Shown here piece by piece: positions 25,818-58,250 of a stretch of 64,000 bases of DNA; position 1 is the first letter of the stretch, and each line of letters begins with the position of its first letter. Source of the DNA: Candidatus Latescibacterota bacterium (GTDB lineage: Bacteria; Latescibacterota; UBA2968; GCA-2709665); NCBI GenBank assembly GCA_965226795.1, contig CBDDDZ010000005.1:256001-320000 (forward strand), given 5' to 3'. A program made the translations under genes and the position numbers. The notes below the pieces were generated by a model that did no database searches, was not told where the DNA came from, and saw nothing but the letters and a program-made list of their open reading frames with translations.

Positions 25818-25873
25818 GCGATTTGACTCGTGACGACGTAATGCAGGCAGCAGCAGGAAAGACAATCAACTCA

Positions 25874-25929
25874 CACGAAGCCACAAAGACACAAAGACAA
25901 AACTCAGCTGTCAGCGTACAGCGGTCAGC
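25874..25929 (+). repeat. Short tandem repeats: CACAAAGA octamers followed by TCAGCNN heptamers
   Basis: cacgaagc cacaaaga cacaaaga caaa ... tcagctg tcagcgt acagcgg tcagc. Confidence 0.6.
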
Positions 25930-25949
25930 CCAAAGCGGTACGACCGCTA

Positions 25950-26273
25950 ATCCACGCAGCGTTCCTTCCCTGTCCGCCTAGCGCCCGCACGGCTGTGGAG
26001 TGGGGGGTTTTGTTTTTCCGCGTTATTCCGTTCAGCAACGTCGTTTTGGATAGCCTGCGGCGCCGGCAGGGCAACATCGTACGCATTCTCCATTGCGGCA
26101 GTTCGCGGAAAAACCGGCCCCGTGCCGAACGGCCTGCCTGCGCCGAGCCGTGCTCGGCAGGCAGGCGCCGTTCTTTTTCGTCCTTTTTCTTGGGCGTACA
26201 AGAAAAAGGACGAAAAAAACAAAAAAAGAGAGAAAGGGACATGACCTGACAGGCGCCAAGTACAACCCATCAT
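25950..26273 (-). ncRNA. Candidate structured noncoding element, copy A
   Basis: Reverse complement aligns with 57359-57640 and with 58044-57873(-), with covarying stems and a pseudoknot. Confidence 0.6.
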
Positions 26274-26496
26274 CAGCCGTTTTCGATTGTTACCCCGTAA
26301 CCGGTTCTGCCGTCTCGGCATTCTGGCAAAATATATCGTATGGCGATTCGCGTGTCAATTGAATCACCGGGTGCGGCTGCCGATCGTTTGAGGCGCGTAC
26401 ACCCGCTTCTGCGGGCACGAGATCGGTCCCCGTGGCGCTGTATCACATGGTTTGGGCACGGTGTTTCCGTTCTGGATTCGGGACAACCTGCCGGGC

Positions 26497-26525
26497 TTGA
26501 CAAAGGGATGCGGAGGCCGTAAATT
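26497..26525 (+). promoter_or_regulatory. Sigma70-type promoter upstream of larA
   Basis: TTGACA-17 nt-TAAATT. Confidence 0.55.
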
Positions 26526-26534
26526 TCGGCTGGC

Positions 26535-26700
26535 TAACAGTCCGTTGATAAAGTCGCTCTGCAGGCGAGGCCGAGCCATTGTGACCGAAGACAAGGCGCG
26601 CGACCGAGTCGAATCTGGGGATTCGGGGAGGGAGCGCAACGCAGTAATTCGGGCACAAGAGCCGGCCGCAGCCCGGATGGACTTTTTCAACGGGCTGCTA
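26535..26700. mobile_element. MITE-like element (~166 bp) with terminal inverted repeats
   Basis: Left end TAACAGTCCGTTGATAAAGTC versus reverse complement of the right end TAGCAGCCCGTTGAAAAAGTC (18/21 identical); no transposase. Confidence 0.7.
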
Positions 26701-26748
26701 AGAAGGCGCCGGACAATGGAACCGGAGCCGTCGAAATCGGAGATCCTT

Positions 26749-56422: not shown

Positions 56423-56908
56423 GTGATATCCGGCAGCCGTCATCGCTCGCAGGACGTCGTCGGCCCCCCGTGGCGACAAAGTCCCATCCAGAACACAGGC
56501 CTTCAGGATTCCGACGGTTCCCGTAAAAACGACACCTCTATCGAAACAACAACTCCTGGCGGCCCGGTCGTCCGTGGCAACAATACCGCCGCGGGTTTGC
56601 GCGAGGGTTATACACGAGGCTTCGCCGGGGGAGAGAGTCTGCAAGAGTTCCCGGTAGGTATCGCGCTCTTCCGGAGAGAAGCGTTCAACACCGCTCAATC
56701 TCCCGGTCGCAACTGCGGTCTCGACCTCCTGCAAGCCGGAGTAGCCGGCGACAATGCCGTCGGCGATCTCGTCCAGCACCTGCGGCGTGACATGTGCCCG
56801 AAGACCGTAACGGGTAATGACCAGGTCCAGGCGGACGGAAAGGACGAAATTGCTCAGCGTAACCGTATCGAAAAAGAACTGCCGGCCAGGTTCAGGCACG
56901 CGCGGCAT
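56258..56908 (-). CDS. PIN-domain (VapC/DUF3368-like) toxin
   Basis: FDTVTLSNF, LSPGEASCI, ATDDRAAR, GTVGIL motifs; the 3' end overlaps the convergent permease gene. Confidence 0.8.
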   Translation of the reverse strand: MPRVPEPGRQFFFDTVTLSNFVLSVRLDLVITRYGLRAHVTPQVLDEIADGIVAGYSGLQEVETAVATGRLSGVERFSPEERDTYRELLQTLSPGEASCITLAQTRGGIVATDDRAARSCCFDRGVVFTGTVGILKACVLDGTLSPRGADDVLRAMTAAGYHSAVGRISALVLTVNRSRGGPTVKNGDDPGNQQGGSLNPDPHTSGRSEKEDESRN

Positions 56909-57206
56909 CCTCATCGCCGTACACGTTGCGCTGGGGGATGCCCTGCTCTAAAAGCCACGACCTCAGGTGCAAGACGTGCATTCCCATCTCCCTGGCCAGC
57001 TTTCCGAGGCTGATAAACCCACCCTGGTAGGCGGCAAGCGCCTGGCTTTGGCGAAGCGGCAACTCGGCGAATCCAGGCTGGTAACAGGCGGAAATTGCTT
57101 CCCGCACGAGCTGCCCCTTGCTTTTTCGACGGATGTCCGACAGTCTTCTCAGCTTCAGGTCCGTCTCGCTGTCGATCTTGATGTGCAACGTCCTGTCATT
57201 TGCCAT
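56892..57206 (-). CDS. Antitoxin, RHH/CopG domain plus UPF0175 domain
   Basis: N-terminal RHH-like segment (TLHIKID...SKGQLVREAI), C-terminal YQGGFISLGKLAREMG; overlaps the PIN start. Confidence 0.75.
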   Translation of the reverse strand: MANDRTLHIKIDSETDLKLRRLSDIRRKSKGQLVREAISACYQPGFAELPLRQSQALAAYQGGFISLGKLAREMGMHVLHLRSWLLEQGIPQRNVYGDEDAARA

Positions 57207-57234: not shown

Positions 57235-57270
57235 TTGTATTAATATACAACTTCTTATACAAGATATCAA
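57235..57270 (-). promoter_or_regulatory. Sigma70 promoter with overlapping operator palindrome for the TA operon
   Basis: Minus strand TTGATA-17 nt-TATATT; palindrome TTGTAT-N4-ATACAA (57235-57250) overlaps the -10 box. Confidence 0.65.
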
Positions 57271-57358
57271 GATCGGGTACAATCAGATGCAAGGGCAAAT
57301 AAGTCGATACTTTTTTTGGGTGATCCGCCGGAGGCAGGGCGAAACTGGGGAAAGGCGA

Positions 57359-57640
57359 ATGATGGGTAATTCTCCGGGCCTGTCCGGTCATTTCCTACTG
57401 TCTCTTTAATCTTGTTTTTCTTTCTTATTCGCGTAAGAAAAAGGACCAAAAAGAACCGCGCCGCTCAAACGCCGCGGGGCTGCTTTTCCGCGAATCGCCT
57501 CAGTGGCAGTTACCTGGTTTGGTGGCCTGCTGAAATCGTAGGCATCCATAAACCGTGTTGCTGAATGGATTAGCGCGGAAAAGCCCCTTCCGCGCAGACC
57601 GGGAGGGTGAGAGGTAACAGGGACGGACCGCGGTGAGGAT
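57359..57640 (+). ncRNA. Candidate structured noncoding element, copy B
   Basis: Colinear with the reverse complement of 25950-26273, with compensatory changes in stems. Confidence 0.6.
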
Positions 57641-57690
57641 TTGGGGTTGTACCGCGAACCTACGTTAGCTAACCGTTGAGGGCTTTACCC

Positions 57691-57714
57691 GGGAGCGAGG
57701 GCTTCCAGCCCTCG
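57691..57714 (+). repeat. REP-like palindrome, copy 3
   Basis: GGGAGCGAGGGCTTCCAGCCCTCG. Confidence 0.6.
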
Positions 57715-57733
57715 ACGCACCGTCGTTGCATTT

Positions 57734-57758
57734 GTAGGGGCAACTTTCAAAGTTGCCC
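57734..57758 (+). repeat. GTAG-type REP
   Basis: GTAG-GGGCAACTTTCAAAGTTGCCC hairpin. Confidence 0.7.
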
Positions 57759-57872
57759 ACGTGATAGCGTTGACATCGGCAACTGACATCGCCAGGCCGA
57801 TCGCTGACTGCTGCTCGCGCTCAGAAAGCCACGCAATTTGCGAACGCGGTTCCATTCCAGAGCGCTACCAGA

Positions 57873-58044
57873 GCAGAGCGCGCGGTTCCATCCAGCGCCG
57901 AGGATCGTTGTTCTACGGTGGCTGGCAGGGCAAAGGATCATGTGCCTCCGGGGAGGCAATTCGCGCTGTGCATATGGACGGCCCCGCGCCTGGGGGCGAC
58001 TTTTGGTTCCTTTTGGTCGCTTCAAAAGGAACTCGCCGAAGGCA
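57873..58044 (-). ncRNA. Candidate structured noncoding element, copy C (most diverged)
   Basis: Retains CGCGAA(Y)YGCC, TGCCCTGC and GCTGRAYGGA motifs and all stems, with different stem sequences. Confidence 0.55.
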
Positions 58045-58250
58045 GGGAATTTGGGGAGATATGGATTTTGAAGTTGGTTCTCGGTTTTTGCTTCAAGCTG
58101 ATTACTGACTGCTGATGGCTGACCGCTATTCTCGCCGGAGGCAGGGAATTTGGGGAGAAGTGGAATTGGATTCTGGTTTTTGCCTTTTGCTTCAAGCTGA
58201 CTGCTGAGAGCTGACCGCTGATAGCTGTTTATTCTGATCGCTGACCGCTG
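58032..58250 (+). repeat. Imperfect ~99 bp tandem duplication with GCTGANN heptamer arrays
   Basis: CTCGCCGRAGGCAGGGAATTTGGGGAGA...TTTTGCTTCAAGCTGA...GCTGACCGCT starting at 58032 and again at 58131. Confidence 0.75.

Follow-up and report, generated by a model that had tools for sequence, protein, structure and literature searches.

The systems closest to the repeat described here are the REPs with their BIME and REPIN arrangements, the BoxC/PIT/TM repeats, and the bacterial MITEs together with unassigned repeats of Pseudomonas fluorescens. In the accessible sections of PMC8266576, REPs are described as intergenic, non-autonomous repeats in many mosaic copies, with inverse-oriented units, a variable linker and a GTAG-like tetranucleotide. 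The element studied here resembles them in these respects and in being scarce near the terminus in this genome, but it is 250-900 nt long and built of several modules, as opposed to the 20-50 nt of a REP, its GYAG box is enclosed in a large loop and has no covarying hairpin, and it ends in a pseudoknot. The BoxC/PIT/TM repeats, as the accessible part of PMC4666352 presents them, are likewise intergenic, numerous and without a transposase, and are laid out as a pyrimidine tract, a loop, a purine tract, a linker and a mirror purine tract. On sequence, the element has this three-tract geometry of an intrastrand triplex, and the physical triplex is predicted. However, the TM consensus is G/C-rich whereas the module of our element is A/T-rich (a separate TM-like module occurs in the mosaics), and the triplex of the element would be locked by an extra pseudoknot helix and is one module of a larger whole. 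MITEs and the P. fluorescens repeats, compared here by their description in part of PMC2718517, are non-coding and polymorphic, with a stem, a variable core and an uneven chromosomal spread; the element shares these features and, unlike them, has no terminal inverted repeats, target duplication or cognate IS of its own. No description of this repeat family was found in the literature searched, which mostly excluded subscription journals and supplements.

The window, a stretch of 64,000 nucleotides from a genome of Candidatus Latescibacterota (G000), contains the three copies that the original prediction had described: copy A (25945..26275) and copy B (57330..57650), both of type I, and copy C (57815..58070), of type II. 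All ends are approximate, and the inferred working strand is plus for A, minus for B and plus for C, opposite to the strand on which the element was first read. The short motifs first listed are present in the expected places and order in A (minus strand), B (plus) and C (minus). C lies tail to tail with B, and the spacer between them (57688..57815) holds a module of 7-mer repeats along with REP-like palindromes, an arrangement shared with other type I/type II composites. C is missing at this site in the relative G013. Beside A and C, at 25865-25925 and 58090-58250, lie degenerate 9-mer and 7-mer tandem repeats, which recur in most mosaics and which we presume to be associated with GxxExxY and four-helix-bundle genes. 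A separate small inverted-repeat element (~165-190 bp) is present at 26510-26703, upstream of a Lar_N gene. Contigs from two runs pass over it, which makes it polymorphic between strains, and a relative of it sits inside a type I 5′ module at C3:577400-577600 of G000. Close to B, the small UPF0175-like gene at 56892-57206 (minus strand; weak Pfam match) is probably an antitoxin with a PIN-like partner downstream, and overlapping divergent promoter-like sites occupy 57242-57283, just upstream of B.

The family turned out to be far larger than the three copies predicted, since an iterated profile search of the genome returned 112 matches to the core at 85 loci. Of these, 107 were anchored on a conserved box; one truncated core was dropped and one re-typed, leaving 75 type I copies (like A and B) and 31 type II copies (like C) for analysis. 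Most type I copies are solitary, and 24 have a type II partner tail to tail within 800 nt, like B and C. By rough gene calls, 105 of the 106 analysed cores lie outside called genes and 40 of the 75 type I copies stand behind a gene on the working strand (~46% expected); orientation to neighbouring genes thus has no clear bias, and a role as a 3′-UTR stabiliser was rejected. Only 9 of the 112 cores fall within the 46% of the genome around the GC-skew switch, taken here as the terminus. The proposed covariance model (92 cores) and search of relatives placed the core in 44 of the 151 genomes examined from the phylum; these 44 belong to a single order of Ca. Latescibacterota, with matches in 18/18 genomes of its own family, 25/30 of the sister family and 0/102 of twelve other families. 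A pattern scan gave at least 99 stretches, and the records among the matches listed are Ca. Latescibacterota and MAGs labelled Gemmatimonadota; among the RNA data, one holder of the core is a sponge metagenome. The core pattern had 0 matches in viral contigs and only short, chance-level matches in plasmids. A single pattern match in Acidobacteriota (L084) was discarded when the profile gave no match there. Rfam, the first check suggested, gave nothing on the window or on the element by gathering score or by E-value (the E-value search covering B and C), and two weak matches both lie far from the cores.

The long-range stem of the original prediction was borne out. In A, its arms at 26012-26022 and 26104-26114 (overall 26012..26114) close a 70-nt variable loop (26032-26101) with the box GCAGGGCA at 26066..26073 on the plus strand (GYAGGSCA in the family), as indicated by sequence, covariation and fold. 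In B (57482..57584, minus strand), 57482-57492 pairs with 57574-57584 around a 70-nt loop (57495-57564; box 57523-57530), and in C (57873..57971, plus strand), 57873-57882 pairs with 57962-57971 around a 68-nt loop (57892-57959; box 57925-57932). Across 92 copies the ten pairs are 96.2% paired and eight of the ten have changed on both sides; the covariation score was reached by 0 of 500 shuffles, and slid registers drop to 31-58% paired. Compensatory changes separate types I and II at five stem pairs, and three pairs covary within type I. The predicted inner hairpin CCTGC/GCAGG fared differently: it folds in A, B and C only, as do its basal extensions, and over the set of 92, pairing at its five positions reaches 55%, with double changes in two cells. 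The features common to A and B, a 5′ hairpin and a 3′ tail, exist as described, but they are exchangeable subtype modules outside the conserved core. Type I copies of G000, those at C2:261227 and C5:440445 for example, have extra stem-loop domains downstream of the core, one a shortened echo of it, each ending in the same C-rich direct repeat, so that they drop out by recombination. A also carries an optional palindromic insert of 33 nt (26131..26163, no strand assigned), present in some type I copies only, and contigs skip 33 nt here.

Loop length is held while loop sequence varies. Type I loops (n=75) measure 70 (46 copies), 71 (24), 69 (4) or 66 nt (1), and type II loops (n=31) 67 (15), 68 (13) or 69 nt (3). 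With lengths spread over 66-71 and 67-69, no reading frame is conserved, as first noted, and a coding role was rejected on these variable lengths and on the 0 Pfam families found for two overlapping ORFs tested. Paralogous loops are 57% (type I) and 64% (type II) identical, against 75% and 90% for the 60 nt upstream. The box at the loop centre is invariant, reading GYAG-G(G/C)CA on the working strand with an invariant CT on the opposite one, and the unpaired bases at the loop junctions are invariant too. A candidate hairpin after the box is 81% paired with one double change in 92 copies, and does not covary. Real loops fold no better than column-shuffled ones on either strand with RNA or DNA energies (16 tests, |z| <= 1.4), and no variant-specific folding was found. 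Rare variants among paralogous loops have a flat spectrum over 12 classes, and a diversity-generating retroelement, with its adenine-specific variation, was rejected on this basis. The loops gave no match signal against their own flanks (7.80 vs 7.68 nt), neighbouring genes (7.62 vs 7.55), rRNA/tRNA (8.7 vs 8.5) or the partner loop (0.548 vs 0.543), and genome-wide only a slight excess (13.6 vs 13.1-13.4), in a search that would miss split guides under ~10 nt. An IS110 bridge or guide RNA was likewise discarded: loops match neither target nor flank, and PF02371 has 0 matches in G000 (95.9% complete). Their mutual homology shows that the loops are not captured spacers. We infer that the loop is a fixed-length spacer that travels with the element, not a guide.

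The most conserved structure is a pseudoknot, which the original prediction missed: the A-rich motif AAAAGGA..AAAAG is indeed present, but it was read as a plain motif. In A (26164..26213, plus strand), sequence and covariation predict a pairing of CGCC at 26166-26169 with the loop (26193-26196) of a hairpin at 26180-26211, and a third strand, TTCTTTTT, at 26171-26178 (plus strand) that would complete a triple helix. The pseudoknot and third-strand module of B lies at 57421..57463 (minus strand), its hairpin having lost a few bases relative to the orthologue in G008. In C (57996..58043, plus strand), GCGAC (57996-58000) pairs with GTCGC (58016-58020), next to a third strand at 58001-58004 and a hairpin at 58006-58032; a terminal head, GCC-GAA-GGC, follows at 58035-58043 on the same strand. 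The middle loop base of this head covaries with 58033, and contigs contain linked variants at 58033 and 58039. An isolated second copy of the type II head is found at 58124..58165 (plus strand).

In the direction first read, the A-rich module consists of a hairpin and, after it, a second purine tract; in metagenomes and in the sister family, GCC-TNC-GGC stands in front of this module. This head pattern occurs in at least 122 stretches of metagenome contigs and in two of viral contigs, and the bodies behind the matched heads differ greatly. By these pattern matches, the A-rich module is the end of a repeat superfamily widespread in metagenomes. In 87 distinct heads, taken from 127 pattern matches, there is pairing between the hairpin loop and the bases that follow the second tract (longest Watson-Crick run 3.49, against 2.31 +/- 0.10 for shuffled partners); this tract, on which the pattern imposed a minimum length of four, varies in length with the stem (rho 0.68-0.72), and a G in the purine strand is mostly mirrored in the second tract (positions 3, 4, 5 or 6 by variant). 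Read from this covariation, the head module is an H-type pseudoknot with a matched third strand and a predicted triple helix. We take telomerase RNA and ENE folds to be its nearest likeness, as H-type pseudoknots in which a pyrimidine loop mirrors the purine strand of the second stem, G position included; in keeping with this, the second helix, between hairpin loop and flanking strand, covaries in the 87 heads. Unlike these folds, that of the element belongs to a mobile bacterial repeat and has neither a template nor a poly(A) partner, and an RNA nature is putative. In 83 of 99 metagenome heads listed and in 33 of 33 type II copies, the base that follows CGGCG is paired with the central base of the head loop, a putative tertiary or dimer contact between positions six apart (58033 and 58039 in C). 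The head boundary is sharp in the superfamily, with a flank that is T-biased as read (T in 67 of 99 at -1, heads listed); type I copies have no head and decay gradually on both sides. Pairs of inward-facing heads 270-400 nt apart were also seen in unrelated lineages (L174:1501-1930, L162, L218), so the tail-to-tail layout is not confined to Latescibacterota.

The original prediction probably took the wrong strand, and several asymmetries suggest that the working strand is the opposite one. Non-canonical pairs of the long stem count as G.T on that strand in 38 cells, compared with 9 in the direction of reading (249 of 261 copies were scored), and G.T there extends the pseudoknot helix in 30 vs 4 of 85 heads, although strand-biased deamination could also cause such wobble asymmetry and the copies are not independent. 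Against this call, 82 cells of two short inner helices without compensatory support have G.T as first read, and B is preceded in that direction by a weak promoter-like site. On the working strand, the end of the element runs from the pseudoknot to GCC-GNA-GGC, the head loop being TNC as read, hence GNA, in 61 of 69 copies. According to part of PMC13037366, only GNA loops give a very stable DNA mini-hairpin, the RNA counterpart being much less stable; a GNA loop on the working strand is thus a DNA hallmark and favours DNA. Two features point the other way. On the working strand the head has an A-rich flank, as retroposed elements do, and a pseudoknot with U.A-U-type triples is an RNA-type fold. 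In exact contigs of RNA libraries, which may hold DNA and in which strand, ends and level are invisible, B has a depth of 4.1 vs 5.4-6.4 beside it; A, in contigs that may also hold DNA, has 7.7 vs 7.2 upstream and 31.6 in the next gene. The small-share RNA runs X6 and X9 contain other copies of the element, not the window locus. Of the natures originally offered (ribozyme-like RNA, mobile ncRNA or ssDNA element), the last fits best, and selection on a single-stranded fold is supported by the covarying stem and the pseudoknot.

The copies are embedded in mosaics of a stereotyped kind, alongside REP-like, 7-mer, 9-mer and TM-like modules. The junctions examined contain neither a target-site duplication nor a terminal inverted repeat of the element's own, and identity as a DDE-type MITE was rejected except where a separate 162-bp MITE carries the element. 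This MITE (L012:5135-5296; C3:637135-637296 in G000) is abundant and young, with copies 85-95% alike; at L012, L106 and L081 it has inserted into type II elements and in some cases has a complete type I copy as its cargo. At L106, a 575-bp insertion with a whole type I copy is bounded by inverted repeats of the 162-bp MITE at TAG and has a clean empty site in G000; at L081, G008 has the same MITE where G000 has an empty site.

A co-occurring nuclease, reverse transcriptase or transposase was also to be looked for; no mobile gene recurs beside cores or heads in G000, at the 99 loci of relatives listed or at metagenome loci. Of the 127 longest neighbouring ORFs, 74 were scanned with Pfam and are mostly housekeeping. 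An IS200 gene seen twice is one locus in two assemblies, and candidate autonomous copies were dismissed, as inverted pairs 2-3.6 kb apart enclose ordinary or phage genes. G000 has three Y1 matches, with flanking palindromes of other kinds, and its RAYT gene is flanked by a different palindrome, not by the core; at C2:164316 and C2:170050, the Y1 domains lie inside reading frames of ~1200 aa. Y1 matches occur in four of five relatives, and G009, with many copies, has none; the core is within 1.5 kb at 0 of 12 Y1 loci of relatives. Unlike a REPtron, then, the core was not found flanking a RAYT gene in G000 or at these 12 loci, and only captured RAYT fragments were seen, in G013. Group II intron-like RTs are present in G000 away from the copies, and no RT was found next to any copy.

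The empty sites that were to be looked for exist, and presence and absence between species indicate a mobile element, not a merely decaying repeat, as predicted. All 63 pattern matches of G008 and 38 of the 71 of G013 were compared with G000; among cores with an identifiable orthologous flank, 27/53 (G008) and 18/29 (G013) have no core in the same orientation at the orthologous G000 site, and alignments of filled and empty sites were found. With one mis-anchored copy and one without a coding flank left out, 35 same-site loop pairs are bimodal, 18 differing by 0-8 bases and 17 by 16-36. Among the 17, some probably arose by separate insertion into one gap, and about five retain both tails and are true loop swaps, as at C3:124703 vs L353, where the loop was replaced between orthologous tails; one of them is a swap of half a loop, at C3:522866 vs L331, with the break just after the box. 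Conversely, C3:276169 and L358 have the same loop and different tails on both sides, and B kept its loop (1 base different in G008, 2 in G013) while its frame changed subtype in G013; the loop of C differs by 4 bases in G008. Within G013, identical or near-identical loops occur at several sites.

Where the orthologous loop was retained, 31 of 1243 loop sites (2.5%) are different, compared with 1136 of 6665 adjacent four-fold sites (17%) and 10-20% of sites in element tails. No more than one base differs in 12 of the 35 same-site pairs; other intergenic windows of 70 nt are this similar in 19 of 257 cases. Some loops are identical in three genomes. In about half of the near-identical cases, near-identity continues into spacer repeats for several hundred bases. 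This speaks for recent transfer rather than selection, without settling the matter; we infer transfer of patches between species, and the slow loops would be accounted for just as well by purifying selection. Parts of types I and II have been fused by microhomology, and in G013 fragments of RAYT genes were captured into element tails: at L379:14100-15300, two C-terminal RAYT fragments with their own palindromes are fused into type I tails by microhomology. A dense run of elements surrounds ispE-rplY-pth and rpsF-rpsR-rplI (names read from translations) at L378:2600-14700 in G013 and at L380 in G008, including insertions between ribosomal-protein genes.

We are highly confident that this is a mobile repeat under selection for a single-strand fold. 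The choice of enzyme is far less certain. It is unlikely that the element is a SINE-like retroelement, in which a working-strand RNA with a 3′ triplex pseudoknot would be bound by an RT in trans and copied into A-rich sites, leaving one fixed and one ragged end. The sharp head boundary of the superfamily with its T-biased flank as read, the variable other end, the flat substitution spectrum of paralogous loops and the group II intron-like RTs of G000 all agree with such a scenario, as does the presumed similarity of the pseudoknot and third strand to telomerase and ENE folds. However, no copy adjoins an RT, type I copies lack a head and decay gradually on both sides, the GNA loop is a DNA hallmark, and contigs of RNA libraries cover A and B at the depth of the flanking DNA, a weak argument from contigs only. 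A self-cleaving or self-splicing ribozyme, possibly acting in both polarities as in rolling-circle RNAs with types I and II facing each other, would make sense of the invariant unpaired bases at the loop junctions and of the 24 tail-to-tail pairs. It is very improbable, and this part of the original prediction is not supported: the inner hairpin does not covary, leaving no covarying inner core, the loop is hypervariable between paralogues, Rfam returned no ribozyme even by E-value, most type I copies stand alone, and no circular or strand-switching joint is listed in contigs of the RNA runs examined.

The slow loops could be explained if the element were a domesticated structured RNA or DNA whose loop carries locus-specific information, as a guide, protein ligand or regulatory tag, under purifying selection by the host. 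The 2.5% vs 17% divergence, the excess of near-identical pairs (12/35 vs 19/257), the loops identical in three genomes and a length fixed despite ~40% divergence between paralogues would all follow. Nevertheless, we consider this quite unlikely: the two loops are unlike in 17 of the 35 same-site pairs and numerous sites lack a copy, so that any one loop can be done without; no flank, neighbouring gene, rRNA/tRNA or partner loop is matched by the loops; near-identity reaches into spacer repeats, as recent transfer would give; and there is no orientation bias to neighbouring genes. Nor is it probable that the copies are passive passengers of a mosaic, carried as cargo by DDE-type MITEs and small repeats and kept alike by ordinary gene conversion, with a fold that has no present role. 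The filled and empty MITE sites at L106 and L081 are just such cases, but MITE ends lie on both sides at only a handful of the 85 loci, compensatory stem and pseudoknot changes recur across types, families and unrelated metagenome lineages, and loop length is held.

The explanation that we favour, tentatively and at somewhat less than even odds, is a non-autonomous repeat whose folded ssDNA is recognised by an HUH nuclease in trans, with nicks driving short-patch recombination. On the working strand, the element would consist of variable 5′ modules, the stem with its fixed-length loop and central box, a small hairpin and the pseudoknot with a major-groove third strand, with the GCC-GNA-GGC hairpin last in type II and most relatives. 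This terminal fold may be the recognition end for an enzyme encoded elsewhere, most likely an HUH nuclease of Y1/RAYT type, and a nick would lead to short-patch recombination with the best-matching copy. With a paralogue as partner, frames would be homogenised, loops or tails swapped and neighbouring repeats captured; with an orthologous allele of a related species, near-identical same-site copies would arise and empty sites be filled. In favour of an HUH enzyme, the GYAG box resembles the GTAG foot of REPs, copies lie among REP-like modules, and the junctions examined are free of target-site duplications and of terminal inverted repeats belonging to the element. CT, invariant opposite the box, is given as a TnpA-REP cleavage dinucleotide in the accessible part of PMC8266576. 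Against it, no enzyme is linked to the copies, and the box lacks the covarying hairpin that a REP would need.

How gene-less repeats spread in bacteria is an open question even for REPs. A natural triple-helix pseudoknot in ssDNA, or a bacterial SINE, would each be new if true, and the slow fixed-length loop follows from neither. It is conceivable, if doubtful, that the family belongs to an undescribed class of gene-less mobile elements spanning many phyla, with a common terminal triplex pseudoknot and mini-hairpin for a trans-acting enzyme, which would home between species and exchange a conserved, information-bearing loop cassette of fixed length. In any case, the family offers a testable handle on this question, with a terminal fold that Latescibacterota share with unrelated lineages of gut and environment, a defined working strand, and alleles that occur naturally in filled, empty and swapped form.
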